In this document: positions 1-58,306 of the stretch, piece after piece
How positions within the stretch are numbered: position 1 is the first letter of the stretch
How the letters are laid out: each line of letters starts with the position of its first letter
Assembly (NCBI GenBank): GCA_903944345.1
Contig: CAJARJ010000009.1
Coordinates: forward strand, 65,875-129,874
Reading direction: 5' to 3'
Length of the DNA stretch: 64,000 nt
From: Candidatus Omnitrophota bacterium
GTDB taxonomy: Bacteria > Omnitrophota > Gorgyraeia > Zapsychrales > Fredricksoniimonadaceae
Notes under the pieces: model-generated
Told to the model about the DNA's origin: nothing
The model's input: the letters and a program-made list of their open reading frames with translations, nothing else
Databases searched by the model: none
Program-made: the position numbers and the translations under genes

Positions 1-198
1 GTTTTCAAAACTTTCATTACATTCGAAAGGAATATGATACTCATGCCCCTTGAAGGTCAATGACGAGCAACCCCAAAGACGGGTCAAAAAGTGAACAGAC
101 ATCCCCTCTTCCGCAAAGCGCTGCTTGTAATACCATATCTCGGGCTCATAATAATCCCCCTCCATCAGTATGCCAATTTTCTTTCCGCCTGCCATCAT
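1..198 (-). CDS. DJ-1/PfpI-like protein, N-terminal part (CDS runs off window start)
   Basis: Manual translation of the minus strand from ATG at 198 gives MMAGGKKIGILMEGDYYEPEIWYYKQRFAEEGMSVHF... with no stop before the window edge. The KKIGIL..G....E pattern is typical of DJ-1/PfpI. Its start overlaps the stop of the upstream gene (ATGA). It is absent from the ORF track because no stop lies in the window. Confidence 0.35.
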   Translation of the reverse strand, partial: MMAGGKKIGILMEGDYYEPEIWYYKQRFAEEGMSVHFLTRLWGCSSLTFKGHEYHIPFECNESFEN

Positions 199-1793
199 GA
201 CGCTCCCTTGTATCGGACTGCCAACATGGTAATATCATCGGATTGAGGAGCATCCAGCACGAAACCTTGAACTTCCTCGCGCATCCGCAGAATGATATCC
301 TTGACTGATTGCTTCTGAATTTGCCGTAAAATAGTTTTCAGGCGTTCTTCCGAAAACTGTTCCTGAGCGGCATTCATGGCTTCGGTAACACCGTCAGTAT
401 AAAGAAAAACGGTATCCCCGGGCTTGATAAGCATCGAATTGTTTTGCGAAAGTTTGTTTTCCATAACGCCCATAACAAAACCGCCCGGAACTTTGAGATA
501 ATTAAAACAACCCAGATGGTCACAATTTTCGATAGGATCATGACAATCGCCACAGCAGCTGCGGTCAAAGACCAACGGCGGATTGTGCCCGGCATTGCAG
601 AACTGCAATTCTCCGGTCTGGATATTAAGAATCGCACAAAAAACCGTAACAAACTGACACGTGGAATTGTCCGGATACATAATATTGTTAACCCGGGTCA
701 GGATCTCGTCAGTAGAAAGGCCGCGCTTGGCTTCATTCTTGATCAAGGTTTTACTGATGGCCATAAACAAGGCCGCCGGAACGCCTTTCCCGGAAACATC
801 ACCAATAACAAAACACAGCCTGTGATCATCAACAAAAAAGAAATCATAAAAATCCCCGCCTACTTCCTTGGCCGGATCCATCAAAGCAAACAAGTCAAAC
901 TCTTTACGTTCAGGGAACTCTACCGGAAGCATGCTGGCCTGAATATCTTTGGCAATACGTAATTCGCTCTCCATGCGTTCACGGGCCGCAGTTTCGGCCT
1001 TCAGATTCTCGATGAACCTTTTGATCGACACCTGAATAAGCTCAATAGCCAGCGAAGGATCTTTGCCAAAAAAACGAATAACCTCATCCTTGCCCATGGT
1101 AAAGACTTCGAGGTCCTCCTCGCAAACGGCAGAGCAAGTCCTCTCCTTGTAGGGAGAGAAAATTCCCATTTCCCCGATAACATCTCCCTCACCTACAACT
1201 TTCTTGATCTCAACCAGTCGAATAGCACCTTTGGCAATATAAAACATCCGGTCAGCAGGATCCCCGGCCTTGAAAAGAGTCTCACCCTGTCTGAAGGTTT
1301 CTTTCTTCATAAACTCGAGCGGCCAGCGGCAGACACAATCAGAAGCTCCGGAAGAAGATTTGCCTCCGTTTGGCTTTCCGTCATGACAGCAGGAGTTGGT
1401 CTTTACCAGAGTCAGGATGTTGCGGCCATCTTCCCGGCGATAAATGACATCGTCCATAATCTGGCGAATCATGAATATCCCAAGTCCACCAATACGCCGC
1501 GCCTCCATCGGAGCCGTAACGTCCGGAGCAGCTAATGCCAACGGATTAAACTCAATTCCGGAATCAATAATCGTAATCTCAAGACAGTGCTCCTGATTAA
1601 GAACAACAATCTCCAGATCACCTTCTGAACCGGGATAAGCGTAATTTATAACGTTAACCAGAGCTTCTTCGCAAGCAAGCTGAACCTTATCGATTGTTTC
1701 TTTCTTGAAATACTGCCGTGCAGCCGCATCGCGAATAAACACGAACATGCTCTCAAGATTGCCGAGTTTTGCGGGCAAACAAAGTCGTTCCAT
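195..1793 (-). CDS. Three-domain signalling protein: RsbW/SpoIIAB-like anti-sigma kinase (HATPase) + cNMP-binding domain + PP2C/SpoIIE phosphatase
   Basis: The N-terminal part has the GGLGIFMIRQIMDDV HATPase_c motif. The middle part is CAP_ED-like (GEMGIF...C). The C-terminal part carries the PP2C/SpoIIE motifs FYDFF..GDVSGKGVPAALFMA and DGVTEA. Cys-rich inserts are present (CCHDG..CVC and CCGDCHDPIENCDHLGC). Confidence 0.75.
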   Translation of the reverse strand: MERLCLPAKLGNLESMFVFIRDAAARQYFKKETIDKVQLACEEALVNVINYAYPGSEGDLEIVVLNQEHCLEITIIDSGIEFNPLALAAPDVTAPMEARRIGGLGIFMIRQIMDDVIYRREDGRNILTLVKTNSCCHDGKPNGGKSSSGASDCVCRWPLEFMKKETFRQGETLFKAGDPADRMFYIAKGAIRLVEIKKVVGEGDVIGEMGIFSPYKERTCSAVCEEDLEVFTMGKDEVIRFFGKDPSLAIELIQVSIKRFIENLKAETAARERMESELRIAKDIQASMLPVEFPERKEFDLFALMDPAKEVGGDFYDFFFVDDHRLCFVIGDVSGKGVPAALFMAISKTLIKNEAKRGLSTDEILTRVNNIMYPDNSTCQFVTVFCAILNIQTGELQFCNAGHNPPLVFDRSCCGDCHDPIENCDHLGCFNYLKVPGGFVMGVMENKLSQNNSMLIKPGDTVFLYTDGVTEAMNAAQEQFSEERLKTILRQIQKQSVKDIILRMREEVQGFVLDAPQSDDITMLAVRYKGAS

Positions 1794-1798
1794 AGGAT

Positions 1799-2134
1799 TT
1801 ACTCTGTCCAGGAATCCTGCAGGGTCATAAAATTATCCAGACCACTCATTTTAATGACATTCAATATTGCGGGGGCCGCAGCAACCATAAAGATATGAGC
1901 ATCCACTCCGATCTTCTGTTTTGCGAAAATGATCACACGCAATCCGGCGCTGGAGATATACTCCAGGTTCTTGGCTATAAAAACCAGCTTGGTTACACCT
2001 TGACCCGCGTACTGCTTGATCTCGGTCTGAAGAGCTTCCGAATTAGTGGCATCCAGTCGACCGATCAACTCGACTTTGACAACCTTATTGGCACATACTA
2101 CGCTAAATCTGGAATCCATAGTCTGTTTCTCCAT
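1799..2134 (-). CDS. STAS-domain anti-sigma-factor antagonist (RsbV/SpoIIAA-like)
   Basis: The protein is 111 aa and has the conserved phosphorylatable Ser motif YISSAGLRVII. It sits between the PP2C fusion protein and GlgX. Confidence 0.8.
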   Translation of the reverse strand: MEKQTMDSRFSVVCANKVVKVELIGRLDATNSEALQTEIKQYAGQGVTKLVFIAKNLEYISSAGLRVIIFAKQKIGVDAHIFMVAAAPAILNVIKMSGLDNFMTLQDSWTE

Positions 2135-2149
2135 TTATGATACATTCCC

Positions 2150-4282
2150 CTATCGGGTCTTTTTCCCTACCAGTATGACCACCGAGCGAGACCCCAGCAT
2201 AAAAGCGGATTGATCCGCTAATTCCACTTCTTTGCCCGGCTGCCAGATATCCTGGGGAGCCGGAGCATCCGTATTGGCAAAAACATGCCAAATCATCCCC
2301 GAAGGAAGCTGGGGCAATTCAAAAAGAGCACTCTGCCAATGCATGTTCATTGCGACATAAATCCCGTTATCATCAACTGTCCCGCCTTTGGCATGATGAC
2401 CACACAAAAGAAATGCAATCCGGCGACTTTCCGGGGACCAGTCAACATCCCAGGCCTTCTGACCGTGCCAGGTAATATCGGCATAACCACTGCCCATATA
2501 ATCCCTGTTCTGAAAATGAGCACGATTTCGCAATACCGGATGCGCTTTTCTGAAAGCGATCATCTGGCTGAAAAAATTGAACAACTCGCGATTTTTTTTT
2601 AGCATACGCCAGTCAATCCAGGAGATTTCATTGTCCTGGCAATAAGCGTTATTGTTACCCCATTGCGTATTGGCAAACTCATCCCCCGCCAGAATCATCG
2701 GAGTACCCTGACTGACCAGCAGCAGTGCGGCAGCATTTTTCATCTGCTTGATACGCAAACAATTGACCGCCGGATCTTCAGTCTCTCCCTCAACACCGCA
2801 ATTCCAGCTATCATTGTCATTCGATCCGTCAGAATTATTTTCGCCGTTGGCTTCATTATGCTTGTCATTATACGAAACCATGTCATAAAGAGTAAAGCCG
2901 TCGTGGGCAGTAATAAAATTGACCGACGCACAGGCCCCACGACCTTCCCATGAATACAAATCCGGAGACCCCTGCAATCTCTGTGCGACCGCTCCCAGCA
3001 TTCCGGGTTCACCTTTAATAAATTTGCGGATATCATCGCGGTATTTTCCGTTCCATTCGGCCCAACGACCCCATGCAGGAAAAGATCCCACCTGATATAA
3101 GCCGCCAGCATCCCAGGCTTCGGCAATCAGTTTGCATTTTCCAAGAATCGGGTCAAATGCCAAAGACTCCAAAAGCGGAGGACTATGCATGGGCGCTCCG
3201 TTTTGATCCCGGCCAAGAATCGAGGCAAGATCAAATCGGAAACCGTCCACATGATAATCCGAAGCCCAATAGCGCAGGCAATCAAGAATCATGCTGCGAA
3301 CAATCGGATTGTTACAATTAAGCGTATTGCCGCAACCGGAGAAATTGAAATAGTAGCCCTCGGGAGTCAGCAAATAATAGGTCTTATTATCGATGCCGCG
3401 ATAAGAAATATACGGGCCGCGTTCATTGCCCTCTGCGGTATGATTAAAAACAACGTCCAGAATAACTTCAATGCCGTTCTTGTGCAGTTCCTTGATCATG
3501 GTTTTGCATTCATCAACCTGCATCCCCAGTTTTCCGGTAGCCGCGAATCCGGCTTTGGGAGCAAAAAAGCCGACATTGCTGTACCCCCAGTAATTCATCA
3601 GCATTTTCCCGCTTGCAGAAGAAATGCGTGAGTTCTCGAATTCATCAAACTCGTGAATAGGCATAAGTTCAATGCAATTAACCCCAAGCTCTTTAAGATA
3701 GGCTATTTTCTCCCGAATACCGGAAAAAGTCCCCGGATGCTTGACACCCGAAGAACTATGGCGAGTAAACCCGCGCACATGCGCTTCATAAATAACCAGA
3801 TCTTCGACCGGAGTTTCCAGCGGCCGGTCGTTTTCCCAGTCAAAATCATCGAAGCAAATCCGGGCCCGGTGCTGATACGCATCCGACCAGTCCGGAGCCT
3901 TGCCCCAAACATCCCGACCACCAATTGCTTTGGCATAAGGATCCATAAGAATTTTTGTTTTGTCACAACGATGCCCTTCATGAGCATTAAAAGGGCCGTC
4001 TATGTAAAAACCATATTCGATATTTTCATAATCCAAGTCGAAAACAACCATCGTGAAAACATTGCCGATACGAAACTCGTCCTTGAAGGGTATTGTGGCA
4101 CAAGGCTTCTGCTCCCCCTTGCTGAATAACACCAAAGTACAGGATGTAGCAATGCGGGAATAAACCGAAAAATTAACCCCACCCTGAACGATTGTTGCTC
4201 CGAACGGCAAAGGTTTACCAACCCGCAGTTTGAATTTTCCGCAATCACTGTCATGGGTAGGATGCAGGTCAACCCTAAGCAT
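2150..4282 (-). CDS. glgX: Glycogen debranching enzyme GlgX (GH13 isoamylase-type)
   Basis: 710 aa. GH13 signature blocks are present: GFRFDLASILGRD, EAWDAGG and DGFTLYDMVSYNDKHNEANGE. The N-terminal region is CBM48-like. Confidence 0.85.
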   Translation of the reverse strand: MLRVDLHPTHDSDCGKFKLRVGKPLPFGATIVQGGVNFSVYSRIATSCTLVLFSKGEQKPCATIPFKDEFRIGNVFTMVVFDLDYENIEYGFYIDGPFNAHEGHRCDKTKILMDPYAKAIGGRDVWGKAPDWSDAYQHRARICFDDFDWENDRPLETPVEDLVIYEAHVRGFTRHSSSGVKHPGTFSGIREKIAYLKELGVNCIELMPIHEFDEFENSRISSASGKMLMNYWGYSNVGFFAPKAGFAATGKLGMQVDECKTMIKELHKNGIEVILDVVFNHTAEGNERGPYISYRGIDNKTYYLLTPEGYYFNFSGCGNTLNCNNPIVRSMILDCLRYWASDYHVDGFRFDLASILGRDQNGAPMHSPPLLESLAFDPILGKCKLIAEAWDAGGLYQVGSFPAWGRWAEWNGKYRDDIRKFIKGEPGMLGAVAQRLQGSPDLYSWEGRGACASVNFITAHDGFTLYDMVSYNDKHNEANGENNSDGSNDNDSWNCGVEGETEDPAVNCLRIKQMKNAAALLLVSQGTPMILAGDEFANTQWGNNNAYCQDNEISWIDWRMLKKNRELFNFFSQMIAFRKAHPVLRNRAHFQNRDYMGSGYADITWHGQKAWDVDWSPESRRIAFLLCGHHAKGGTVDDNGIYVAMNMHWQSALFELPQLPSGMIWHVFANTDAPAPQDIWQPGKEVELADQSAFMLGSRSVVILVGKKTR

Positions 4283-4636
4283 TTAAGCCCCTTTCTTGAC
4301 AGTTGTCAGCGCAGAAAAAGCAGAAGGAACATCCTCAAAACTCTTGAAAAAATTATTGAAGCCTGTCATCTCCATGACATCCTGAACCTCAGGAGAAAGA
4401 CCGCTAAGCACCATAACACCCCCGATTGCTGACATCTGCTTGGCAGCCATCAACAAAAGCCTTAAGCCGGCACTGGATATGTAGGCACACGCCCCCAGAT
4501 CCATAATAACCGCCGCCCCTTTTGTCGAAGCCAAAGGCAGTATCATTTCCTGTGCGGCATTAACCGTATTACCGTCAAGACTGCCGGAAAGCTTGATAAC
4601 AGTGACCCCGTCCAGAGCTGTAGTAGTAATCTCCAT
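4283..4636 (-). CDS. STAS-domain anti-sigma-factor antagonist (second copy)
   Basis: 117 aa with motif YISSAGLRLLL. It abuts the glgX start with no gap. Confidence 0.8.
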   Translation of the reverse strand: MEITTTALDGVTVIKLSGSLDGNTVNAAQEMILPLASTKGAAVIMDLGACAYISSAGLRLLLMAAKQMSAIGGVMVLSGLSPEVQDVMEMTGFNNFFKSFEDVPSAFSALTTVKKGA

Positions 4637-4676
4637 TTTCTATTCCTTAATTCCGGACTGCTGTATAGTCCGGATT

Positions 4677-6497
4677 TTATGCCACAGGCGTAAGACGCAC
4701 CTTGACCTTGGGCCTATAATTTAAATTCGGTAAATCAACCGTGAGTTTCTCCGCATCAAAATTTTTCCAGGGATTACCGTCAATCCAGACCTCCGAGATA
4801 CGCACACTACCTTTAGGAAGAATATCCGGCTGAACCCGCAGAATATCCCCAGGGAAGCCATGCGGTAACGGTTTGAAATAAAGATCCAGCGGTTTCTTTG
4901 TATAAAGCAAATTCTGGTAGACCTGGGACAAATAGCATAGTTCGATCGAATGGTAACAGGCCATGGAATGACTGCCCTTCAGGCGTTCCGTTCCGAGCAG
5001 AAATGGCAACCCGTTATTAAGCACATTGAAATATACTGCGCCATCATCATGATCCAGGAAGAAGGCATTGTAGAAAGCTGCAGACTCGCGCCCCAGACGC
5101 AAATACTCGGGGTCCTTCAATACACCATGCATAATCTGATAGGCAAGAATGGCCTGCTCCTGCTGCCACCAGGCTTTACGATCGTGCCAGACATGACGAT
5201 AACAGGTTTCCCCCGGAGCCAGTTCTCTTTCCATAACGTCGTACCACCCGCCCCTCTGGACATCCATGCCGACTGTCGGCATAATGCTGGCAATCTTGCG
5301 GGCGAAATCCACATATTCCTTCTTGGATTTCAAACTGTTGATGCGTAACAAATTCCAGGCAATCTTGAGATTGTGTCCGATCACGCCCCGATTCTGCTGC
5401 CAGCCCCAGGTCTTGTCATGGCTCCAATCCTCCAGAAACTTTTCCTGAACGAACGGACTGTGCTCATAATCAGGGAAATATTTGGTAATGCAGTCGGCCG
5501 TCTCAATCAGGAAATCTTCGTGCTTCTTGTCGCCGGTGGCCAGCCAGAGATTGATCAAATAAGCTGGCGCATGATCTCCCAGCGAATTCCAGTTCTTGCG
5601 TCCGCGGTTTCTACCCAAAGATTCGTGTCTGGGATTAAGATTAACCGGATCGATATGGGAGAAATATCCGCCCTTTTCCTTGTCCAGAAAGAAACGATCA
5701 AAAAGATCAATGGTCATCTTGATATCTTTCATAATCGCCGGATCCCCGGTAATACGATAGGTCTGAGTGGGACCCGCCAGAGCATAAATCTGTTCATACA
5801 TCGGGATGCCATCATAATCATCACCGAATTCCGAGGCAAAGACCTTATGCTCCCGGCCATGCTTGATATCAATACCGTGGTACCAGTAGACCACATTCTC
5901 ATCCGTGTCATAGAAACGCATATGATCGCGCAGATACTGAGTCCCCTTCTCTGCCGCCTCCAGAAAACGATCTTCTCCGGTCAAAAGAAACGCCGAGGCC
6001 ATTCCATAGACCATCCGCGAAATGGTATCTGTCTCCTGACGATGATCCTCTTTACGCTCCCCGGTCAAAGATATCATCGTACGATAGTTGTTGTAATCGA
6101 TGGTATCCGGACTTCCGAACTCTGCCTTGATATAGAAATCCGCAATACTGGCGGCCTGCTTGATCCACCAATCAGCTTCTTCAAAACGGAAGTTATCGAT
6201 CCCGGCTCCAGAAAAAACAAGCACCTTGGCATCAAAATCAAACCCCTTGCTCTCGGGATAAAAAATACCCATTACATACAAGTACTGCCCTTCAACCATG
6301 AGCTCATCGATCCTGCCGGTATAATCGCACCATCCTTCACCTAAATTACGTGGTCCACGAGCATAAGCAGAAGCGGTCAGACGGGCGAAGAACTCTCTGC
6401 CATCAGTTGTTTTGAGGGAAAATGTACGTTTGTCCTTATCAAATCTGGTGACATAGCCGGCAATCGTATCTGAAAACTCGAACTTGATGTTATTCAT
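4677..6497 (-). CDS. AGE-family (N-acylglucosamine 2-epimerase / cellobiose 2-epimerase-like) six-hairpin protein with N-terminal extension
   Basis: 606 aa. The C-terminal block RKAWWQQEQAILAYQ matches the K.WW.Q.EA pattern of the AGE/YihS superfamily. An N-terminal beta-rich domain of about 200 aa precedes it. Confidence 0.5.
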   Translation of the reverse strand: MNNIKFEFSDTIAGYVTRFDKDKRTFSLKTTDGREFFARLTASAYARGPRNLGEGWCDYTGRIDELMVEGQYLYVMGIFYPESKGFDFDAKVLVFSGAGIDNFRFEEADWWIKQAASIADFYIKAEFGSPDTIDYNNYRTMISLTGERKEDHRQETDTISRMVYGMASAFLLTGEDRFLEAAEKGTQYLRDHMRFYDTDENVVYWYHGIDIKHGREHKVFASEFGDDYDGIPMYEQIYALAGPTQTYRITGDPAIMKDIKMTIDLFDRFFLDKEKGGYFSHIDPVNLNPRHESLGRNRGRKNWNSLGDHAPAYLINLWLATGDKKHEDFLIETADCITKYFPDYEHSPFVQEKFLEDWSHDKTWGWQQNRGVIGHNLKIAWNLLRINSLKSKKEYVDFARKIASIMPTVGMDVQRGGWYDVMERELAPGETCYRHVWHDRKAWWQQEQAILAYQIMHGVLKDPEYLRLGRESAAFYNAFFLDHDDGAVYFNVLNNGLPFLLGTERLKGSHSMACYHSIELCYLSQVYQNLLYTKKPLDLYFKPLPHGFPGDILRVQPDILPKGSVRISEVWIDGNPWKNFDAEKLTVDLPNLNYRPKVKVRLTPVA

Positions 6498-6790
6498 GAC
6501 AATCTCCCCTGAATGTAACGAATCAGACTAGTCTTCCTCTAACAAAAAAACGAGTCCGGTGCGGGCTCGTCTTTTATACGCATTTTGCTATAAATCCGGC
6601 CAACAAGACATACTGGAACTCCACGAGGAAAAATGGTAGATTACTTGTAAGTTCAAATTGGCAAAATAATACCTACTTAACAGAGGGCATTCTATCACCC
6701 GTTTTGATTTACACAACTATTTTTCAAAATGTATCTTTATGGCTGAAAACTATCTAACATTCCCGTCGCCTAAAATGAAAGAAACTCGCT

Positions 6791-7249
6791 ATGCTTAAAA
6801 TATCAACAAAAACCCGCTATGCCATCCGTGCCCTGGTAGAAATGGCTAATGACAGCAAGCAACTTCATTTGCTGGATCAACTTGCCCTGCATCAAAACAT
6901 TTCCAGAAAATACCTCGAAAACATTTTTGCACTGCTTAAAAAAGGTTCCATCGTGCAAAGCAAAGTCGGCAAGAATGGCGGCTTTTACCTGCGAGAGAAA
7001 CTGGAAACCATTACCCTGTTAAGAATTTACGAATTGATGGAAGGAGAGGTCGAAGTTGTCAGCTGCCGGAGCAGGAAAAGAAGCTGCCCTCGCCTGTCAT
7101 TCTGCCCGGTCAGTCCGGTATGGAGCGAGGTCAGCGCGCAAATAAAAAAGACACTTGCCTCAAAAAGTCTCAAAGATCTTTGTGAAATCAATCGAACAGA
7201 AGCCAACTGCGAGGAATCAAAGCCCGCAAGTAAAAAAAGATCAGCATAA
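6791..7249 (+). CDS. Rrf2-family transcriptional regulator (IscR-like)
   Basis: The N-terminal HTH reads MLKISTKTRYAIRALVEMA. A three-Cys cluster (CRSRKRSCPRLSFCP) could ligate an Fe-S centre. The gene is divergent from the glgX/STAS operon. Confidence 0.8.
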   Translation: MLKISTKTRYAIRALVEMANDSKQLHLLDQLALHQNISRKYLENIFALLKKGSIVQSKVGKNGGFYLREKLETITLLRIYELMEGEVEVVSCRSRKRSCPRLSFCPVSPVWSEVSAQIKKTLASKSLKDLCEINRTEANCEESKPASKKRSA

Positions 7250-7286
7250 TCGCTTGAGACTCCCGGCTTGACAGGAGCTTCTGTTT

Positions 7287-7885
7287 CTACCGTCTTTTCT
7301 TTTTGGTGTCCACAACCCCGGGCGCTGATTTTACATGAGCTTTAATTAAATTCAAAATTTCGGTATTGCCCCTGCTTGTGGCCAACGACAGCGGCGTTGC
7401 TCCATTGTCCATCTTTGCGTTGACATCAGCTCCGTTTTGCAGCAGCATCCTGGCAACCTCGACATGCCCCTGCTTGCGCCCCTTAAAGCAGGCAAAATGC
7501 AAGGGAGTTGCCCCGTCCTTGGCTCTAGCGTTCACCATTGCACCACGATCAAGCAGCATCCTCGCGGCCTTGGTCTGGGCCTGAGAAGCCGCAACATGCA
7601 AAGGCGTTCCATCATTACCATTCGTAACATCTATTTTAACATGATACTCATCCAGAAGAACTTTAACCACTTCCAATTGTCCCCGCCCGACAGCCCAGTG
7701 TAGCGGCGTCTTGCCCTGTTCATCCTTGCTGTACAGCAGCGACTGATCATGATCCTGATCCAGTAATGTTCTAAGCAAGGTAACATCACCGCTTTTGGCG
7801 GCTTCATGAATAGGCTCCGAAAAAGAAATCCCAGGCGCCAGCGAACAGCACAATAGGATGAGAACAAGAGAGAATAAACTTTTCA
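7287..7885 (-). CDS. Secreted ankyrin-repeat protein
   Basis: At least four ANK repeats are present (G.TPLH.A....L.VV.LL). I trimmed the start to GTG at 7885, which has an AGGAG Shine-Dalgarno; this gives a signal-peptide-like N-terminus (VKSLFSLVLILLCCSLA). Confidence 0.7.
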
Positions 7886-8015
7886 CAAGGACTCCTTTCC
7901 TGACTCGATGATTTGCTGCTATTATAATGCGCAATAAAGCCTCAGAATATATTTCTTTACAAAATTTTATGTTCCAGACTTCTCTACATGGAACAAACAA
8001 TAAAGGAGTTCAGCA

Positions 8016-8762
8016 ATGAAACCTGTCAACGTCGGGATTACGGGAGCCGCCGGAAACATCGGAACCACTCTGCAGGAAGGCCTGGCTCGGGATTATTCTT
8101 TATCTCTTTATGACACAAAAGAGATTTTAACAGCCCCCGGTGCCAGATTTATAAAAACTAATCTAAGCGAAGAAACCACCCTTCACGGTCTTTTTGACGG
8201 TCTTGATGCACTTATTCACCTGGCCGGCAACCCGCGCCCTGATGCTCCCCGGAAACAAACCCTGCAAAACAACTTTCTCGCCACCAGCCTTGTGTTTGAA
8301 GAGGCCCGCCGCGCCGGAATTAAAAAAATCGTTTTTGCAAGCAGCAATTTCTACCATGAAAATGATCTTGCCCAAACACTCCACAATCCCAACCGGGGAT
8401 TGATCACTCTGGATGCGCCCCCCAGCCCCGTCTGCCTTTATGGCGAATCAAAAGTTTATGGAGAGAACCTGGGCCGACATCTCTCTTATACAGGTGGTTT
8501 AAAGTTTGCCGCTTTAAGAATCGGATGGACGGTTCCGCAGGACACCCCAAGACCATATGACAGTCCTTATATGCGGGCTGTATTTTGCAGCAAAAGGGAT
8601 CTGGTGCAGGCTTTTGTAAAAGCACTGGAAGTTGACACAGATTTTATCACTGCTTTTGCTGTCAGCAACAATTCCCGGGCAGTATTCGATCTGGATGAAA
8701 CCAGAAAAACTCTTGGCTTTATCCCCCAGGACAATGCCGAAAACTATTTCAGGAAAGACTAA
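8016..8762 (+). CDS. NAD-dependent epimerase/dehydratase family (SDR) protein
   Basis: Rossmann motif VGITGAAGNIGT at the N-terminus; 248 aa. Confidence 0.7.
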   Translation: MKPVNVGITGAAGNIGTTLQEGLARDYSLSLYDTKEILTAPGARFIKTNLSEETTLHGLFDGLDALIHLAGNPRPDAPRKQTLQNNFLATSLVFEEARRAGIKKIVFASSNFYHENDLAQTLHNPNRGLITLDAPPSPVCLYGESKVYGENLGRHLSYTGGLKFAALRIGWTVPQDTPRPYDSPYMRAVFCSKRDLVQAFVKALEVDTDFITAFAVSNNSRAVFDLDETRKTLGFIPQDNAENYFRKD

Positions 8763-9427
8763 CCCTTCCGCTGATGCCCGTTAAAAAGAAATGAAAACAT
8801 AAAATAAAGGGCGATCAGAAAATACAGTGTAAAAGCCAGCCCCGTGCTGACAAAAGCCAGAAAAGCGGCCACAAGATAGGCCACCGGTCCAAACAAGAAC
8901 GCGGCAACAATAGCCTTGCGATATGCGGGCAACGGAATGCCTTCCTTCAAAATCTTGCAATCGAAAATACCATACCATCTGACAGCCACCAATGCCCCAC
9001 CGGTCAAGGCCATCACCACTCCGTAAAAAGCCACGGCCAGAGGATTCTGTGGATAATCGCCTACAAGCGCAGTGGGGAAAGGGATAAACGAAACAAACAA
9101 CAGTACAAATACATTCAACCAGAACAGAATAATATTAAATCCACGAAAACTGTCAAAGATGCGATGATGATTCACCCAAACAATACAAACTGTCAAAAAA
9201 CTGATGATCCAGCTCAAGAATTTTGGCAGAAGACCCCGTAAAGCATCCAGTAAAACAGACACCGAATCTGCCTGGCCGATATGAGGAACCTTGATCTCCA
9301 GGATCAGCAGCGTGACAATAATGGCAAAAATACCATCGCTAAAAGCCTCCACACGGCTTTTGGTCAGTTCACCATAACGAAAAGTTTTCTGATCCGCCCT
9401 ATCGGCTGATAAATGTTCCGCTGCCAT
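8759..9427 (-). CDS. DUF1211 / TMEM175-like membrane protein (putative K+ channel family)
   Basis: RVEAFSDGIFAIIVTLLILEI signature, with multiple TM segments. Confidence 0.55.
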   Translation of the reverse strand: MAAEHLSADRADQKTFRYGELTKSRVEAFSDGIFAIIVTLLILEIKVPHIGQADSVSVLLDALRGLLPKFLSWIISFLTVCIVWVNHHRIFDSFRGFNIILFWLNVFVLLFVSFIPFPTALVGDYPQNPLAVAFYGVVMALTGGALVAVRWYGIFDCKILKEGIPLPAYRKAIVAAFLFGPVAYLVAAFLAFVSTGLAFTLYFLIALYFMFSFLFNGHQRKG

Positions 9428-11144: not shown

Positions 11145-12125
11145 TCACGCCTCTATCAACTCAACAAGCCTGGGATAAATCACTGCGATTCTTTGGTAGG
11201 GCTGCTCGGGGTCAATCAAATCATGCAAAACACCTAAACTTCTATCGAATTCAAAACGCGTAATTCTTACACCGTTATGTTTCTTCCAGTTATCAATCAC
11301 CTTTGCAAAAATCCTGTCATTCACCGATTCATCTAGCGCATTGGCAACTACAAGAATGTCCTGCGTTTTGGGTGCCAGTCTGCTGGCATCTTTAATCACG
11401 AACCAGCCCAAAAGCATGATTTGAGCCAACCCTCTGGTTGAAAAACGATAGTACGCAGAAGTCGGCCCCAAAAGCTCCTTCTTTTTCTCATTACTCCACC
11501 ACAAGAACATATCAGGCAGGATCAGCAAGAAATTGATAGCCAGCTTCAAGCAACTGACGGGCAGCATCTTCCATCCCCAAAACGGCGATATTATAACCGC
11601 TTTATCGACATCACCCCTGTTCTGCGCAATCCAACAGGCCATGTTTGCCCCCATAGACAAACCGGCGACAATAACATGCCGGCCCAGTCCCCGGGCAATA
11701 TCCACAGATTCATCTGATAATTCGATCAATTCCGACACTGTCAGTCTGGAGTAATCTTCAGTCATTCGATCCTTGAGGCCATGATGTGGTACCCGGGGAA
11801 TCAAAACATTATAACCCTTATTGTAAAAGATCTCCCCCAGGGCCCTAAATTGTCGCGGGCTGTTTGTCCCTCCATGAAAAAAGACAATAACGCGCCCGAC
11901 CCGCTTGCCGTGAGTCAGAAAGACAAGATGTCCATCCGAAGAAACCTCATCCCCGTCGACATTGCGTAAATCATCAATACGCCTTACGCTTTCCTGATAA
12001 CTTCTCGATGGCACAGTTCCTGAAACGGGAGAATCTACCCGTAACAGTTTTGAGAATAAAGTCCTGAATTCATTAAATATTGACATCACGGCTTTCAGAA
12101 TGTTTCCTTGAATCTGTTGAGACAT
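11145..12125 (-). CDS. Alpha/beta-hydrolase (esterase/lipase-like)
   Basis: FFHGG oxyanion motif and GLSMG nucleophile elbow. Confidence 0.65.
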   Translation of the reverse strand: MSQQIQGNILKAVMSIFNEFRTLFSKLLRVDSPVSGTVPSRSYQESVRRIDDLRNVDGDEVSSDGHLVFLTHGKRVGRVIVFFHGGTNSPRQFRALGEIFYNKGYNVLIPRVPHHGLKDRMTEDYSRLTVSELIELSDESVDIARGLGRHVIVAGLSMGANMACWIAQNRGDVDKAVIISPFWGWKMLPVSCLKLAINFLLILPDMFLWWSNEKKKELLGPTSAYYRFSTRGLAQIMLLGWFVIKDASRLAPKTQDILVVANALDESVNDRIFAKVIDNWKKHNGVRITRFEFDRSLGVLHDLIDPEQPYQRIAVIYPRLVELIEA

Positions 12126-14173
12126 ATTCTCATAAACTGATCCGGAAAAACGTCAAACATCTTTTCGGCATGACCACCATTTGCCATAACCTTCAGAGCC
12201 TTGGGGTGCCGTGCTTTATCGAACAACAGCCGAGTATAACTCAACTTAACAAGCGAATCTTTGCCCCCATGCAGAAACAACACTGGCGTGGGCGCGATTT
12301 TGTCAACGACATCACCCGGGGGAAGCTTTTGCAAAGCCGGACTGCCCGGGCTGACCGCCTCCTCATCTTTGCCAATCTCTAAATTATGCTTGAGATCTTC
12401 CTCCATATCTTTCTTCCAATAATTATAATTAATACTTCCCAGATCGGACGGAGAGCTGACAGCTATAACACTGTCAATATTCTGATGAAAACTTGCTTCA
12501 ATCAAAGTTACGGCCGCGCCCAGTGAAAAGCCGATCACTCCAATTTTTTTATACTTATTCTCTCGGGCGTAAGCAGTAATAGCTCGCAAATCCTTATGCT
12601 CTTGTGCTGTCCATGTAAACACATCACCAATCTTGCCATGTTCACGAAAATCAAAAACAATCACATCGTACTCCCGGCTGAATGCCTCAGCCATCGCTTT
12701 CAACAGGGGCGTGTCCTTGTTTGTGTAAAAGCCGTGCGCAATGACAATGACCCTGGAAAACCCTTTATTAACATGATCAAAGGCAATGCGTTTCCCGTCA
12801 TCGGTCATCACATAACGATTGGCACCTCGCTCCTGTGCAGAAAAGGGCTCCGGCTGAACACTCCCTGAGGCTGTATTGACAATCTTCTCAGGTTCGGTGT
12901 TCCTGAAGTTTCCTTCAAAAATTGAAGTGAATACAGACCGGATATAATTTCTATAAATATCCCACTCGACTTTTATCCTCCAGAAATATAGATACTGTGA
13001 GCTGTTTCTTTTGCCCACAGCGACAGATTTTCGTGATCTGGCCTCCTCATACACAGCCAGCATGCGCTGGGCTGAAAGCTCAATCGTGTATTTCTGTGCG
13101 GTAGCTCTTGCGGAGTGCTTCATTGCCTGCAATTCTTCAGGAGCACAACGTAGTACCGATAACAATGCGTTAACAAAGCTATGCTGATCCATTTCAGCAA
13201 GCAAGCGTCCGTTAAAATGATCTTTAACAACATCCCTGGCTCCCGGAGCATCCAGTGCGACCACCGGCACTCCGGCTGCCATGGCCTCAACAAGAACAAT
13301 CCCTTGTGTTTCGCTCAAGGAGGCAAACGCAAAGACATCCATGGCAGAATATCCATCCACTAGATGCTCGTAATGCAAAACTCCGACCAAATGCAATCTA
13401 CTCTCAAGACCAGCATTCCTGAAGACATCCCTGATCATTGCCTCTGAGGAGCCTTTACCCACAATCAAAGCATGTGCGTTTGGTTCGATTTCCAATAATT
13501 CGACTATAGACGCTACCAGAAAATCCAGATTCTTCTCTGACGCCAGTCTGCCAACATGCCCAATCACAAAAGCAGCACTGGGAATCTGATTTTCTTTACG
13601 AAATCTTTTGCCATCGCCGTTTGAAAAACGCTTCAAATCTACCCCGGTTGGAACGACCTCCATAGGAGTCTTGACCCCCCGTCTAAGCAAGATTTCCTGT
13701 ATGCTTTCACTGGGAACAATCAGGCGATCGACACAATTGGCATAACCAGCCGCAAGCTTGACAATAAATCTTTTTACTCCTTCATTTTGTATCGGCCAAT
13801 CCTGCACGTACTCCTCAAACATTGTGTGATAGGTAAATACCAGCGGAATAGCGTGCTGCCGACTTAAACGTAACGCAAAATCTCCCATAAAAAACGGACA
13901 ATGGCTATGAACAATGTCCGGACTAAATTCTTTCATTAATCGAGTGAGAAGCCGGGAAACCGGAAAATTGACAGAAAAGATGGTCCAGCTGAATTTCTGG
14001 AAGGCGGGCAGACGAATTACCCCTGACTCCTCAACCGGAGCTCCCTGGAAAGTCGGAGTCACTATCAATACTTCATGCCCCAGGGCTTTAAATTCTTCGC
14101 TGAAAGAATGCACCGATTGCTCCAACCCCCCGACAATCGGAAAGTATGTATTGGTCATCATAAGAATTCTCAT
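12095..14173 (-). CDS. Fusion protein: GT4 glycosyltransferase (N) + alpha/beta-hydrolase (C)
   Basis: The N-terminal part is GT4-like (MRILMMTNTYFPIVGGLEQ...EAMAAGVPVVA). The C-terminal part has a GFSLGAA nucleophile elbow and LFLHGGKD. I trimmed the start to ATG at 14173, which has a strong GGAAGGAG Shine-Dalgarno. Confidence 0.65.
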   Translation of the reverse strand: MRILMMTNTYFPIVGGLEQSVHSFSEEFKALGHEVLIVTPTFQGAPVEESGVIRLPAFQKFSWTIFSVNFPVSRLLTRLMKEFSPDIVHSHCPFFMGDFALRLSRQHAIPLVFTYHTMFEEYVQDWPIQNEGVKRFIVKLAAGYANCVDRLIVPSESIQEILLRRGVKTPMEVVPTGVDLKRFSNGDGKRFRKENQIPSAAFVIGHVGRLASEKNLDFLVASIVELLEIEPNAHALIVGKGSSEAMIRDVFRNAGLESRLHLVGVLHYEHLVDGYSAMDVFAFASLSETQGIVLVEAMAAGVPVVALDAPGARDVVKDHFNGRLLAEMDQHSFVNALLSVLRCAPEELQAMKHSARATAQKYTIELSAQRMLAVYEEARSRKSVAVGKRNSSQYLYFWRIKVEWDIYRNYIRSVFTSIFEGNFRNTEPEKIVNTASGSVQPEPFSAQERGANRYVMTDDGKRIAFDHVNKGFSRVIVIAHGFYTNKDTPLLKAMAEAFSREYDVIVFDFREHGKIGDVFTWTAQEHKDLRAITAYARENKYKKIGVIGFSLGAAVTLIEASFHQNIDSVIAVSSPSDLGSINYNYWKKDMEEDLKHNLEIGKDEEAVSPGSPALQKLPPGDVVDKIAPTPVLFLHGGKDSLVKLSYTRLLFDKARHPKALKVMANGGHAEKMFDVFPDQFMRICLNRFKETF

Positions 14174-14208
14174 TGCCTCTCCTTCCGACAAAGACCAATC
14201 ACGCCCGG

Positions 14209-15666
14209 CTACAACCGGTTCTTTAATTCCAGAAGTTCTTTTCTTGCGGCCATACATATCGCACTATAGGAATCCTGCGCCCCCATCAATCGTCCATCCT
14301 TTTCCATATCCCCTGGGAGAAGCGGTTTCCCGAATCTCACCCTGATAGGGTGACGTTTGGGATACTTTACCGAACTGGCCCACGCTTCATGAGCCCCTTC
14401 AATAGCGACAGGTACAAGTTGAGCACCGCTTTCAAGAGCCAAAACCCCAAAACCTTTCTTGAAGCGGCCGATTTTCCCGGTCGTGCTGCGCAACCCTTCC
14501 GGGAAATAACACAAACCTTTCCCTCGTTTTAAAACCAGAAAGCAGCTGCGCAAGGCCTCGAGAAAATGGGTGGAGAAATCAAACGGAATAAATCGTCCCA
14601 TTTTTACTAAATTTCTTAAGACTCGGGACTTCACAAACGGCCTGAAGAAATAGGGCCCGAAAACAAAATAGAAAATCTGAAAGACCGGCCTGCGCGGCAA
14701 ACACGCGGCAATCGCCGGGCCATCAAGAAAGCTCGAATGATTGGCATAAAGAATATAAGCCCCTTCTTTGGGCACATTATCCGCCCCCTCACTTTTGATA
14801 CTAAAAAACAGTCTAAAAAGCAGACAATCAACAGCCGTTAAAGTAAATCGGAACAGCCAGGCGAAATAACCCGTACCCAGTTCGATCATTTCCCATGTTT
14901 CCTGATTTGGCGGCACACTTAAATTATTATTCCAGTAACCGGACCCAGAAGATATCCGCTGTCTCTTTGAAGCGATTATTTCAGGCGACTTAAGCGCGGA
15001 CTCCAGCTCCCGCAGCAGCTCTCTTACACTGAAGGATCTCGACACCGCCTCATCTTTTATGTCCGAACCAAACGCCAACTCGAGGCGTGATACAAGCTCT
15101 ATTCTGCCCAGAGAATCTATACCCAGATCAAGCTCCAGCGAATCCTCAAGCATGATCGGCCTGATAATCCCGCACTGCTCTTTCAGGCATTCCAGAACTT
15201 TTATCCCTTCCTCTGACCGCAAAAGCCCGGAATCACTGGCTAAGGCTTCTCCTGAGCCCGGAAGGGCCCCCTCGATTCCCGCGATGACTCTGGGCTCATA
15301 AATTTCCCTGACAGCATATCTTTCCAGCTTGCCAAAGAAATTGTGCGGCAAATCCTCGAGCGTAATGGTAAAGCCTTTGAGTCTTTTATAGACAGGCAAA
15401 GAAAGCGAGACATTGTCGAATCTCTCCTTAAGGACAGAACGCAAATTGACCTCGCCAAATTCCCTGAAACTATCCAGATCCGGCTGTATGACTGCCCAAA
15501 GCACCCTGGATTTCCTAACCCCATCCATTCCCGGGACTCCGAAAACACACATCTCTTTAACCGGAGCCATTTGGGTATAGACCGCCTCGATCTCCTCCGG
15601 ATAAATTTTCTCCCCCGGGTTCAACCTGAATGCTTCAATATATTTGCCCACAGGTCTCTCTGTCAT
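14209..15666 (-). CDS. Fusion protein: AMP-binding C-terminal subdomain + acyl carrier (PP-binding) domain + PlsC/LPLAT acyltransferase
   Basis: The N-terminal ~120 aa resemble only the C-subdomain of adenylate-forming enzymes (GEKIYPEEIEAV...GKLERY). An LGIDSL phosphopantetheine site follows. The NHSSFLD (HX4D) acyltransferase motif is present. The gene overlaps the upstream gene by 1 nt (TAATG). Confidence 0.6.
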   Translation of the reverse strand: MTERPVGKYIEAFRLNPGEKIYPEEIEAVYTQMAPVKEMCVFGVPGMDGVRKSRVLWAVIQPDLDSFREFGEVNLRSVLKERFDNVSLSLPVYKRLKGFTITLEDLPHNFFGKLERYAVREIYEPRVIAGIEGALPGSGEALASDSGLLRSEEGIKVLECLKEQCGIIRPIMLEDSLELDLGIDSLGRIELVSRLELAFGSDIKDEAVSRSFSVRELLRELESALKSPEIIASKRQRISSGSGYWNNNLSVPPNQETWEMIELGTGYFAWLFRFTLTAVDCLLFRLFFSIKSEGADNVPKEGAYILYANHSSFLDGPAIAACLPRRPVFQIFYFVFGPYFFRPFVKSRVLRNLVKMGRFIPFDFSTHFLEALRSCFLVLKRGKGLCYFPEGLRSTTGKIGRFKKGFGVLALESGAQLVPVAIEGAHEAWASSVKYPKRHPIRVRFGKPLLPGDMEKDGRLMGAQDSYSAICMAARKELLELKNRL

Positions 15667-18347: not shown

Positions 18348-19256
18348 TCAATCCGCAACGCGTGACCCAGCCTGCGCCCCGCGCAATGTTCTATAATTCT
18401 TATCCCTGTACATCAACATATCTGCTCTTTTGAGCAACTCTTCTATTGTCTGGGGTTTCTGCGGATTGTAATAAAGGATCCCGAGGCTGAATGTCAGCTT
18501 GCGTGGCGAATTGGTGTTATATTTTGTCTTTTCAAGATTTTCTTTCAGTCGCTTGTGCAACGCATCCAGGCTCTCGGACTTTGCTTCCAAAGCAAGTATT
18601 GCGAACTCATCGCCTCCGACTCTGCCAATAACATCCGAACTGCGGAACGTCTTTTTGAGAACATCGCCTGCTGTCACCAGCGCCCGGTCTCCCTCCTCGT
18701 GTCCAAACTTGTCATTAATCTGTTTCATATTATCCAGGTCTGCATAAATTAGAATAAGCCCCCTGCCCGAACGGTTAGACAACTTCAAAAGCTGATTGGC
18801 ATAGATCAAAAACCCCCTGCGATTACTCACGCCTGTCAAAACATCCACAAGTGCAAGCTCCCGCATTGTCACTTCCGCTTTCTTTAACCTGTCAAACTGG
18901 CTGACCATCGGCTTATAAAATAAAATATACAGCGCGGGGGAAAGCAAGACGATAAGCATGACTGAAGCAACTATGGGCATATCCGTCGTATGCAGATCAG
19001 GAAGCAGCATAAACAAATACTTTGCCAATAATCCACATCCCAGTATGGAGAGCGTCAGGACAAAAAGCAGCCTTCGGGGAGTGTACATTCTTTCAAAACT
19101 GTCCGGCCTGCATTTTCTATCGGAGGCACCAGCCGGGTTTAAAGTGGGATGATAACCCTCTTTCTTTGCCATATTAACAGTCTTTTCCTCAACAGCCCGA
19201 CGATAAAGTGTCGGGCTGATCTTGTCCTGAAGGAACCTCAAAACATCAATTCGCAT
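18348..19256 (-). CDS. Membrane-anchored GGDEF diguanylate cyclase
   Basis: An N-terminal TM region is followed by the RVGGDEFAIL active-site motif. Confidence 0.8.
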   Translation of the reverse strand: MRIDVLRFLQDKISPTLYRRAVEEKTVNMAKKEGYHPTLNPAGASDRKCRPDSFERMYTPRRLLFVLTLSILGCGLLAKYLFMLLPDLHTTDMPIVASVMLIVLLSPALYILFYKPMVSQFDRLKKAEVTMRELALVDVLTGVSNRRGFLIYANQLLKLSNRSGRGLILIYADLDNMKQINDKFGHEEGDRALVTAGDVLKKTFRSSDVIGRVGGDEFAILALEAKSESLDALHKRLKENLEKTKYNTNSPRKLTFSLGILYYNPQKPQTIEELLKRADMLMYRDKNYRTLRGAQAGSRVAD

Positions 19257-24815: not shown

Positions 24816-25943
24816 TTATATCCCCAGTGTCTGGCAGATAAACGTGATGACCGCTGTCGCAATGACAATGCCGGTTATCCCGGTAACGACTGCCGACATT
24901 GTTGCACTTGCAACGCCAACCGAGCTTCTTTCACATTTCATCCCGTGCCAGCATCCCGAGACAGCGATGATAACGGCAAACGCCAGAGAATGCACAAGTC
25001 CGATCCATATATAGCTGACCTTGACCGCCTGTTGGGTATGATTCAGATATTCCGCAAAATTAAGATGCAACATTCCGATACTGATAACCAAACCTCCCAG
25101 CACTCCCGAAATATCTGCGTATATGGTCAAAATCGGCATCATCAAAAATAATGCCAGAACCCGCGGAATGACCAGAAACTCGACCGGAGAAACACCCAAT
25201 GTTCTAAGCGCATCAATTTCTTCATTGGTTTGCATCATCCCCAGTTCAGCGGCAAATGATGCTCCAATACGGCCGGAAACAATTATTCCGGTCATCACAG
25301 CCGACAACACCCGTACCATGGCAATGCCCACGATATCGGAAATATAAATCTGCGCTCCGAACATCCTGAGCTGTATCGATGCTACAAAAGCGAGGATCAT
25401 GCCAACCAGAAAGCCTATTAAAGAAACAAGCAGAAAAGTGTCAATGCCACAGCGCCGGACCAAAAATATGAAGTCATCCCGACGAAAGTACAACTTTCCT
25501 ATCACAAGACGGCCAAAAGAAACAACAACATCTCCCAGAAATTCAAACCCGTTACGCACACTTTCATATTCCTGCAGCAACCCTACTCCCACCCGTTCAA
25601 GAAATGTCTCATGATTCTTCGCAGGCGCAATACCGCCTTTATGAGCCTTTGAGGCCAGCGCAAGCAGTCTCTGCGCAGTCTCTGGCAAGCCCGAGCGATC
25701 AACGGGAATATTCATGGATTCGCACTTACGAATCAGCTGATGTAAAAACGAGACGAGCCCGCTATCCCACTTCAAGTCCTGCGCAGCAGTAAGATTTATT
25801 TGCACAATATCAGGATGGCTGGCGAGGCAGGAGGTGACTGTATTTATTGAAAGAATGCCGGTCGCGATGCGCCAATCACCGCGCAACTTAACAAACAACT
25901 TGCCTGGATTTAAATAATCGAAAACAAGTTTCTCGGATATCAT
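24816..25943 (-). CDS. mlaE: MlaE-like permease with fused N-terminal STAS (MlaB-like) domain
   Basis: About 110 aa of STAS fold precede the MlaE permease core (several TM segments). Confidence 0.7.
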   Translation of the reverse strand: MISEKLVFDYLNPGKLFVKLRGDWRIATGILSINTVTSCLASHPDIVQINLTAAQDLKWDSGLVSFLHQLIRKCESMNIPVDRSGLPETAQRLLALASKAHKGGIAPAKNHETFLERVGVGLLQEYESVRNGFEFLGDVVVSFGRLVIGKLYFRRDDFIFLVRRCGIDTFLLVSLIGFLVGMILAFVASIQLRMFGAQIYISDIVGIAMVRVLSAVMTGIIVSGRIGASFAAELGMMQTNEEIDALRTLGVSPVEFLVIPRVLALFLMMPILTIYADISGVLGGLVISIGMLHLNFAEYLNHTQQAVKVSYIWIGLVHSLAFAVIIAVSGCWHGMKCERSSVGVASATMSAVVTGITGIVIATAVITFICQTLGI

Positions 25944-32154: not shown

Positions 32155-32168
32155 CCTTGAATTATGTA

Positions 32169-58305: not shown

Positions 58306-58306
58306 C

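Follow-up and report, generated by a model that had tools for sequence, protein, structure and literature searches.

A 64,000-nucleotide (nt) stretch of contig CAJARJ010000009.1 from a Candidatus Omnitrophota bacterium (assembly GCA_903944345.1, positions 65,875 to 129,874), here called the window, carries at positions 195-6497 on its minus strand five genes in which a partner-switching phospho-switch is interleaved with two carbohydrate-enzyme genes. Judged by gene content, gene order and short published peptides, this cassette is the Omnitrophota version of a known kind of gene set, the icfG cluster of the cyanobacterium Synechocystis PCC 6803. New here are the fusion of kinase, cyclic-nucleotide-binding (cNMP) domain and PP2C phosphatase in one protein, the host phylum, and the embedding of the module in a larger conserved operon. 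Our overall explanation, to which we give about an even chance, is an icfG-type phospho-switch built into a carbohydrate-enzyme operon. The five core genes, beginning with the one that opens the run, are:

4677-6497, minus strand: AGE-fold enzyme, 606 amino acids (aa); PF07221 at 57.8 bits against a cutoff of 23.4
4283-4636, minus strand: STAS_A, 117 aa; PF01740 and TIGR00377 above cutoff
2150-4282, minus strand: GlgX2-type GH13 isoamylase-like enzyme, 710 aa; TIGR02100, CBM48 and alpha-amylase domains
1799-2134, minus strand: STAS_B, 111 aa; PF01740 and TIGR00377 above cutoff
195-1793, minus strand: fusion protein of kinase, cNMP domain and PP2C, 532 aa; HATPase_c_2 at aa 6-131, cNMP_binding at aa 165-243, SpoIIE/PP2C at aa 322-528

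The gaps between these genes are 40, 0, 15 and 5 nt, the STAS_A stop codon directly abutting the glgX ATG, and the products exceed the curated Pfam and NCBIfam thresholds of their families, which bears out the tight minus-strand run described in the initial annotation of this DNA. For STAS_B the gene caller favours a start at Met6 (nt 2119), giving 106 aa.

Gene order was counted in the best 80 of at least 590 loci that encode the AGE-like protein among species-representative genomes, with host names taken from the labels deposited with the metagenome-assembled genome (MAG) records. The initial annotation had suggested looking for the STAS-glgX-STAS order in relatives. The full order AGE - STAS_A - GlgX - STAS_B is present at 53 of the 80 loci and in many phyla, mostly followed by a gene for an RsbW-like kinase of ~140 aa and a PP2C gene, and this excludes a chance juxtaposition. 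Another eight loci are compatible with the full order and end at contig edges. Nine (Bacillota, Treponema and one Spirochaetota) have AGE - GlgX - STAS_B without STAS_A, three (Selenomonadales) show AGE - STAS_B - kinase and carry glgX a few kb off, and the switch is absent from just two untruncated loci. Two distinct STAS orthologue groups hold fixed positions across phyla in this set. The hosts are Omnitrophota, Cyanobacteriota (including Calothrix NIES-22 and Nostoc isolates), Chloroflexota, Bacteroidota (a Phocaeicola isolate), Bacillota, Spirochaetota, Myxococcota, Gammaproteobacteria, Deinococcota and others. The nearest relatives of the window among the matches listed are Candidatus Omnitrophota MAGs, and the same cassette order is found at cyanobacterial loci L019, L023, L035, L037 and L061, among others. 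For the gene combination outside cyanobacteria, a literature search of incomplete coverage yielded only a Synechocystis salt-stress paper and no account of the cross-phylum cassette. As far as that search reached, both the wide conservation and the larger set of enzymes described below are new.

Two occurrences of the cassette stand apart. One genome has two complete copies (L066 and L067, both AGE - STAS_A - GlgX - STAS_B - PP2C - kinase), ~620 kb apart on the 1.22-Mb contig CAWHAE010000016.1. A full cassette with 44-68% identity is also found on an 8.5-kb contig binned as a Methanobacteriaceae archaeon (L024, PWMT01000082.1). A binning error is the more likely explanation of this archaeal assignment; if the binning were true, the cassette would have a host without any sigma factors.

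The icfG cluster comprises slr1855-slr1861 (Gonzalez et al. 2001; New Phytol 2025, PMC12329169). Its order is slr1855 (GlcNAc-2-epimerase family), slr1856 (antagonist), slr1857 (isoamylase), slr1859 (antagonist), slr1860 (IcfG, a PP2C phosphatase) and slr1861 (kinase). An operon slr1852-1862 has been described with Slr1855 (N-acetylglucosamine 2-epimerase family), Slr1856 (anti-sigma-factor antagonist), GlgX and IcfG. Slr1861 phosphorylates Slr1856 and Slr1859 as well as Ssr1600, a third antagonist that is unlinked, and IcfG dephosphorylates Slr1856 but not Slr1859. Deletion of slr1859 or icfG leads to poor growth at low inorganic carbon with glucose, whereas deletion of slr1856 causes no such defect; phosphorylation of both Slr1856 and Slr1859 rises in the dark. 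Slr1861 also binds the unlinked sigma factor SigC and controls formation of the RNA polymerase (RNAP)-SigC holoenzyme. The targets of Slr1856 and Slr1859 are still listed as unknown in recent Synechocystis work. The cluster is reportedly also the subject of a 1999 study by Shi, Bischoff and Kennelly.

The window cassette shares with the icfG cluster the co-directional order of AGE-family gene, STAS, GlgX-type gene and STAS followed by PP2C and RsbW-like kinase, the SSAGLR phospho-site in both STAS proteins, and the lack of a sigma gene in the cluster. The Synechocystis cluster is tied to carbon, glucose and glycogen physiology. It differs from the window in having two separate genes, phosphatase then kinase, where the window has one polypeptide with kinase then phosphatase. 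Moreover, the sensor in the window is a cNMP domain, whereas the only cyanobacterial cassette phosphatase scanned (Calothrix, L035) carries GAF; the host belongs to a non-photosynthetic candidate phylum; and the window cassette runs on into a long DJ-1/cupin/tautomerase/TPP/VOC operon (TPP, thiamine pyrophosphate). No Synechocystis locus is among the 80 best loci, and published peptides and a cloning primer served as the bridge between the two systems.

This bridge is provided mainly by the STAS proteins. Both score above the cutoff of 53.45 bits for TIGR00377, a model of anti-sigma-factor antagonists (83.8 and 65.4 bits), and both carry an ISSAG motif, at aa 53-57 of STAS_A and aa 60-64 of STAS_B. 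The predicted phospho-acceptors are Ser55 of STAS_A (codon 4472-4474) and Ser62 of STAS_B (codon 1949-1951), and this Ser is kept in >90% of both families, in line with the phosphorylatable residue that the initial annotation had pointed out in each protein. Both align with the phospho-acceptor of SpoIIAA and RsbV. The family consensus is 'ldm..v.Y.SSAGLR' for STAS_A (65 sequences) and 'lv.....Ley.aSAGlRv.iFaKQK.G' for STAS_B (64 sequences). The Synechocystis phosphopeptides are ILLDMTAVPYMS-pS-AGLR for Slr1856 and LVLMMDQLEYMS-pS-AGLR for Slr1859. The first fits the STAS_A consensus and the second the STAS_B consensus, position by position, and the phosphate falls on the Ser equivalent to Ser55 or Ser62. 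The upstream STAS protein of the window is therefore assigned to the Slr1856 type and the downstream one to the Slr1859 type.

The fusion protein combines the kinase and phosphatase of the switch with a sensor between them:

1398-1793, minus strand: RsbW/SpoIIAB-like Ser kinase domain, aa 1-132; PF13581 at 89.6 bits
1332-1391, minus strand: low-complexity linker, predicted to be disordered, aa 135-154; predicted local distance difference test (pLDDT) below 50 in the AlphaFold2 (AF2) model
1065-1301, minus strand: cyclic-nucleotide-binding domain, aa 165-243; PF00027 at 55.9 bits against a cutoff of 27.5
930-1058, minus strand: long connecting helix from the cNMP C-helix into PP2C, aa 246-288; from the AF2 secondary structure
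210-899, minus strand: SpoIIE/RsbU-type PP2C domain, aa 299-528; PF07228 at 158 bits

Motif conservation was assessed in 68 full-length homologues, of which 31 fused homologues served for a subset of motifs. The N box (E42 E43 .. N47), G1 box (D77.G79) and G2 box (G102 G103 L G105) of the kinase are invariant in the 31 and at least 95% conserved in the 68, and NF003144 RsbW is the top NCBIfam match of this domain. Within the phosphate-binding cassette of the cNMP domain (G207-E208-M-G ... R218-T219), G207, E208 and R218 are invariant and T219 nearly so among the 31; these residues line up with Glu72, Arg82 and Ser83 of CRP. The PP2C metal-site motifs GGDFYDF, GDVSGKG, YTDG and SDDIT are conserved among homologues, and the connecting-helix sequence 'kRfiENL.aET.a.ERi.SELRIA..IQ.sMLP' is kept in the 68. 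The initial annotation had proposed an RsbV/RsbW/RsbU-type switch and had allowed that the kinase domain might lack its catalytic residues. These residues are intact, as are the PP2C metal motifs, the phospho-Ser and the cNMP cassette, and the module is a genuine phospho-switch of this type.

The fused form is seen only in some Omnitrophota, namely in the window and in L003-L006. Kinase and cNMP-PP2C are separate genes in L007, L008 and L017, with the gene boundary at the position of the linker, and many homologues of 385 aa are cNMP-PP2C proteins without the kinase. The AF2 model of the fusion protein has a disordered 20-residue linker after the kinase and a single helix at aa 246-288 that runs from the cNMP domain into PP2C. 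Because split forms exist, the linker is predicted to be disordered and the helix to be continuous, the cNMP domain probably belongs to the phosphatase, with a cyclic nucleotide gating PP2C, and we infer that the kinase was appended secondarily, in a sub-lineage only. In most lineages the kinase is encoded by a gene of its own, and Omnitrophota use a cNMP-binding domain as the PP2C input. The input domain at the N-terminus of PP2C differs by lineage: dCache+HAMP, 5TMR-LYT, GAF, REC, cNMP+GAF or none (L012, L010, L015, L033, L050, L029, L035, L060, L042), and L033 has a separate 201-aa cNMP-binding protein after PP2C. The output core is thus constant and the sensory input exchangeable. The initial annotation had placed the operon under cyclic-nucleotide control. 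Since the cNMP domain lies inside the regulator protein, control would be post-translational and not transcriptional, and a phosphatase activity that is probably cNMP-gated is the better reading.

Two carbohydrate enzymes accompany the switch. The GlgX2-type enzyme matches TIGR02100 glgX_debranch at 717.7 bits against a cutoff of 640.9, and 64 cassette orthologues keep its GH13 catalytic motifs DVVFNH, GFRFD, AEAWD and HD without any change. Its N-terminus reads MLRVDLHPTH in the window and MERIDIHPTH at cyanobacterial cassette loci. The slr1857 cloning primer encodes MERIDI, which is the N-terminus of the cyanobacterial cassette GlgX and resembles that of the window. Purified Synechocystis GlgX2 (Slr1857) showed no debranching activity alone in a coupled assay and its deletion gave no phenotype; its authors call the function elusive. 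The substrate of the GlgX2-type enzyme is consequently uncertain.

For the AGE-like protein, a profile search against PDB sequences gave marginal matches (E 4e-5 at best), and fold comparison was therefore used. The AF2 model (pLDDT 80) is an (alpha/alpha)6 barrel with extra beta domains at the N-terminus (aa ~8-99) and C-terminus (aa ~537-604). Its top Foldseek matches in PDB are glucose 2-epimerase, cellobiose 2-epimerases, mannose isomerase and YihS (E 1e-13 to 1e-8), at 13-20% identity, probability 1.0 and a template-modelling (TM) score of ~0.7 normalised to the target. Arg161 is the counterpart of Arg66 in the alignment with Rhodothermus cellobiose 2-epimerase (3wkf), and the protein retains the Gly-His375 motif. 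An invariant Lys378 replaces the AGE-family Glu at His+3, the WW..E region is offset by one residue, and the region of the second His is modelled at low confidence. Because the active site is divergent, the label is limited to AGE-fold enzyme, with no specificity given. The protein is 63-89% identical to homologues across phyla, with a mean column identity of 79% (14 sequences from different phyla). It is thus unusually conserved between phyla, yet only 13-20% identical to any solved AGE-family enzyme.

Several known switches resemble parts of this system. SypE of Vibrio fischeri likewise has an N-terminal RsbW-like kinase, a central sensor and a C-terminal PP2C in one protein, and toggles the phosphorylation of the single-domain STAS protein SypA, with a polysaccharide phenotype and no known sigma factor. 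Its central domain is REC, whereas that of the window protein is PF00027 with no Response_reg match; it has one STAS substrate compared to two in the window cassette, and it lies within an exopolysaccharide locus and not beside GlgX and an AGE-fold enzyme. Because the central domains differ, the window protein is not considered a SypE-family member, and the likeness is one of architecture. The RsbU/RsbV/RsbW-SigB and SpoIIE/SpoIIAA/SpoIIAB-SigF systems of Bacillus subtilis share the three protein families and the phospho-Ser chemistry, and the best NCBIfam matches of the window proteins are RsbW, the antagonist family and SpoIIE. In contrast to these systems, the window has no sigma gene in the operon or nearby, two antagonists, and a fused kinase and phosphatase, and its kinase scores 51 bits with the RsbW equivalog, far below the cutoff of 145. 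HenR/All4160 of Anabaena PCC 7120 (Mol Microbiol 2026, PMC13555669) is a partner-switching-like phospho-switch in which the STAS domain of All4160 directly controls a covalently joined glycosyltransferase; the STAS proteins of the window are free-standing.

The domain set, the intact catalytic motifs and the conserved order are read directly from the sequences. In the mechanism that we propose, the kinase domain would phosphorylate both STAS proteins on the second Ser of SSAGLR (Ser55 of STAS_A and Ser62 of STAS_B), and the PP2C domain would strip the phosphate, probably mainly from STAS_A. These two steps are inferred for the window proteins by homology to the tested Synechocystis proteins. 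The cNMP domain would gate PP2C via the long helix, so that the level of cAMP or cGMP would set the ratio of phosphorylated to unphosphorylated STAS. The unphosphorylated STAS proteins would be the output, acting on the enzymes of the cassette and on the GlgX2-type enzyme first. By analogy to fused kinase/phosphatase switches such as SypE/SypA, this output on the cassette's own enzymes is the likeliest reading, at somewhat less than even confidence.

The absence of a sigma gene does not settle the output. The initial annotation had noted that no sigma factor is present, and none was detected in the 64 kb. Neither a sigma factor nor a nucleotide cyclase was found among the 28 window open reading frames (ORFs) scanned. 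Searches of the window and of 82 related loci (1.47 Mb) with PROSITE patterns, tblastn and phmmer gave no sigma-70-family match, the queries being SigF, SigB, RpoE and RpoD region 2 and the detection of divergent extracytoplasmic function (ECF) factors being weak; in 80 genomes no such gene was detected in the 10 kb around the cassette. The initial annotation had suggested that the STAS proteins regulate the enzymes directly, which this absence does not establish: Slr1861 of the homologous cluster is an anti-sigma factor for the unlinked SigC, and a cluster without its own sigma gene therefore says nothing in favour of direct control of the enzymes. Partner switches that work without a sigma factor have been documented before, as SypE/SypA and All4160.

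Nevertheless, several observations are compatible with direct, sigma-independent regulation of the neighbouring enzyme by each STAS protein (STAS_A acting on the AGE-like enzyme or GlgX, STAS_B on GlgX), which we regard as a tentative possibility on the improbable side. The interleaved order is kept across many phyla, and STAS_B stays with AGE and GlgX where STAS_A has been lost (L025, L026, L028, L031, L034, L036). GlgX2 is inactive alone in vitro and dispensable in Synechocystis, and All4160 offers a precedent for phospho-control of a glycosyltransferase by STAS. In distance-matrix comparisons of 47 complete cassettes (partial Mantel), STAS-GlgX co-variation is weak but above permutation (partial r 0.20-0.28, p ~0.005), compared to 0.43-0.52 for STAS-kinase and 0.48 for AGE-GlgX; kinase-GlgX and STAS_A-AGE co-variation are nil. 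The STAS_A-AGE result counts against direct regulation, as do the Selenomonadales loci, where AGE, STAS_B and kinase stay together with glgX kb away, and the demonstrated Synechocystis output, which is a sigma factor. Moreover, a Rosetta-stone search of the 80 loci found no STAS protein fused to GlgX, AGE, kinase or PP2C.

An unlikely rival is that the kinase sequesters an unlinked sigma factor which unphosphorylated STAS would set free, as in Slr1861-Ssr1600-SigC, with the sugar enzymes merely co-expressed. A kinase domain that binds an unlinked sigma factor and so provides the output, whether in parallel with or instead of action on the enzymes, is rated unlikely as well, and the remaining weight goes to other outputs or to both. 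The control of the RNAP-SigC holoenzyme by Slr1861, the full RsbW/SpoIIAB signature of the window kinase with NF003144 as its top match, and the restriction of our view of this genome to 64 kb all speak for such a route. However, the antagonist of SigC in Synechocystis is the unlinked Ssr1600 and not the two STAS proteins of the cluster, none of the 80 genomes has a sigma gene close to the cassette, and the hosts of the cassette differ widely in sigma repertoire. The kinase is also tethered to a phosphatase, and in the SypE architecture the output runs via STAS. Finally, the fixed positions of the STAS genes beside two enzymes would be left unexplained. That the STAS proteins are MlaB-like or otherwise transporter-associated, or lie beside the sugar enzymes by accident, is almost certainly wrong: transporters too use STAS domains and an MlaE permease gene is present in the window (24816-25943, 19 kb from the STAS genes), but the MlaB-type assignment, which the initial annotation had raised as a possible objection, is excluded by the TIGR00377 scores, the conserved phospho-Ser motif and the adjoining cognate kinase and phosphatase, and an accident by the order at 53 of the 80 loci.

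The reading of the cassette as an icfG-type switch acting on its own enzymes has several points to its disadvantage. The equivalence to icfG rests on the published Synechocystis gene order and three short peptides. The biochemistry of such a cassette is known from Synechocystis only, where the sole demonstrated output, Slr1861-SigC, is directed at a sigma factor. The co-variation, nil for STAS_A-AGE, is kept as a weak hint because related sequences inflate mirror-tree and partial Mantel tests and the effects are small, and the absence of STAS-enzyme fusions from the 80 loci counts against the reading. That GlgX2 is inactive in vitro may mean no more than that it acts on another substrate. The fusion model has a predicted TM score (pTM) of 0.51, which leaves the domain packing uncertain, and cAMP or cGMP is proposed as the ligand of a cNMP domain that is itself predicted.

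The five core genes form the first third of an operon of at least 15 genes. On the same contig in other assemblies (L001:2892-12892), at least ten co-directional genes continue past the window edge, linked by overlaps or gaps of at most 80 nt. The window itself holds the start of the first of them and two further features of the run:

1-198, minus strand: 5' end (~66 codons) of the DJ-1/PfpI gene (DJ-1a), cut by the window edge; 187 aa in full
4637-4676, minus strand: 40-nt spacer between the AGE-like gene and STAS_A, with a 9-bp inverted repeat at 4652-4674
6498-6790, strand none given: intergenic, presumed promoter region of the AGE-like gene, with a hairpin and U7 on the minus strand at ~6543-6570

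After the fusion gene, L001:2892-12892 encodes in order, all co-directional:

DJ-1a, 187 aa; cupin, 126 aa; DJ-1/HchA-like protein, 258 aa
4-oxalocrotonate-tautomerase-like protein, 73 aa, with N-terminal Pro; acetolactate-synthase-like (ALS-like) TPP enzyme, 550 aa, below all equivalog cutoffs
VOC/glyoxalase-I-like protein; Lcl_C-domain protein; third DJ-1; MFS transporter; FGE-sulfatase-domain proteins

The DJ-1a start overlaps the fusion-gene stop, either at 198 (ATGA) or at 195 (TGATG, 1 nt). The ATGA coupling of a DJ-1-like gene, part of the initial annotation, is therefore seen in the sequence with TGATG as an alternative, and the operon runs on past this gene. An orthologue of DJ-1a (45-84% identity), with a conserved Cys-His nucleophile elbow, is found within 10 kb of the cassette in ~48 of the 80 loci. 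The order DJ-1a - VOC - AGE occurs in Chloroflexota, some cyanobacteria, Gammaproteobacteria and Trueperaceae. The DJ-1b/tautomerase/TPP/cupin/Lcl_C set joins the cassette, at 50-87% identity, in Omnitrophota, Riflebacteria, Bacillota, Spirochaetota, Geobacteraceae and Bacteroides/Phocaeicola. No paper on the combination of DJ-1, cupin, tautomerase, TPP and VOC genes with the cassette was found in the literature search, whose coverage was incomplete.

A divergent Rrf2 gene (6791-7249, plus strand, Cys92/99/105) is present upstream as the initial annotation had reported, but it lacks a conserved link to the cassette, being upstream at one of the 80 related loci (L017), and it was rejected as a dedicated cassette regulator. 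Further upstream lie an ankyrin-repeat gene (7287-8000, minus strand) and an SDR/epimerase gene (8016-8762, plus strand); L003 and L005 also have both of them upstream of the cassette. The minus-strand hairpin with its U7 at ~6543-6570 is 46 nt upstream of the AGE ATG. A hairpin and T-run of unrelated sequence occupy the same relative position in L003-L006, L008 and L017, where they may terminate an upstream co-directional gene. In the window the upstream neighbour of the hairpin is instead the divergent Rrf2 gene. The leader at 6498-6620 folds no more stably than its shuffles (z = -0.87), and no riboswitch or attenuator is therefore claimed; Rfam gave no match at E ≤ 1 in positions 1-9000. 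A promoter and terminator scan gave nothing convincing inside the gene run. The inverted repeat at 4652-4674 (TCCGGACT...AGTCCGGA) occupies most of the 40 nt that separate the AGE-like gene from STAS_A and may be an mRNA processing or stability element.

Elsewhere in the window, positions 12095-19256 may represent a glycolipid or polysaccharide locus. The genes there encode a 720-aa fusion of a GT4 glycosyltransferase with an alpha/beta hydrolase, a 485-aa acyltransferase that has a phosphopantetheine-binding domain, a membrane protein of 893 aa that includes a GtrA domain, and a 302-aa GGDEF diguanylate cyclase. An ADP-forming acetyl-CoA synthetase is encoded beside a 1192-aa pyruvate:ferredoxin oxidoreductase at 30034-37613, with a GAF and HD-GYP-type protein at 36039-37613. 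An STT3-like oligosaccharyltransferase homologue is found at 49882-52383 and a type II secretion/type IV pilus gene set at 55755-63998.

For annotation, the window genes are best described as an icfG-type cassette with a SypE-like fused switch that is predicted to be cNMP-gated. The six-gene core is conserved in cyanobacteria as well as in Omnitrophota, Bacteroidota, Bacillota, Spirochaetota, Chloroflexota and other groups, usually with DJ-1, VOC and TPP enzymes. A conserved core with fixed STAS positions and exchanged inputs narrows the hypotheses towards a switch that would serve the chemistry of the cassette and not a lineage-specific sigma factor. The comparative data make the function of the icfG cluster and of GlgX2, a question dating from the 1990s, more testable, and tractable non-cyanobacterial hosts are available, for example Phocaeicola or Bacteroides isolates. 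A bolder proposal, which we consider doubtful, is that icfG is the cyanobacterial face of an ancient multi-phylum cassette in which two STAS phosphoproteins would directly gate a GlgX2-type glucan hydrolase and an AGE-fold enzyme, which in turn would work alongside the co-occurring DJ-1-like, VOC, tautomerase, cupin and TPP-dependent enzymes. If true, it would explain the inactivity of GlgX2 alone and the frozen gene order across phyla, and partner switching would control an undescribed carbohydrate or reactive-carbonyl pathway at the level of enzymes and not of transcription.

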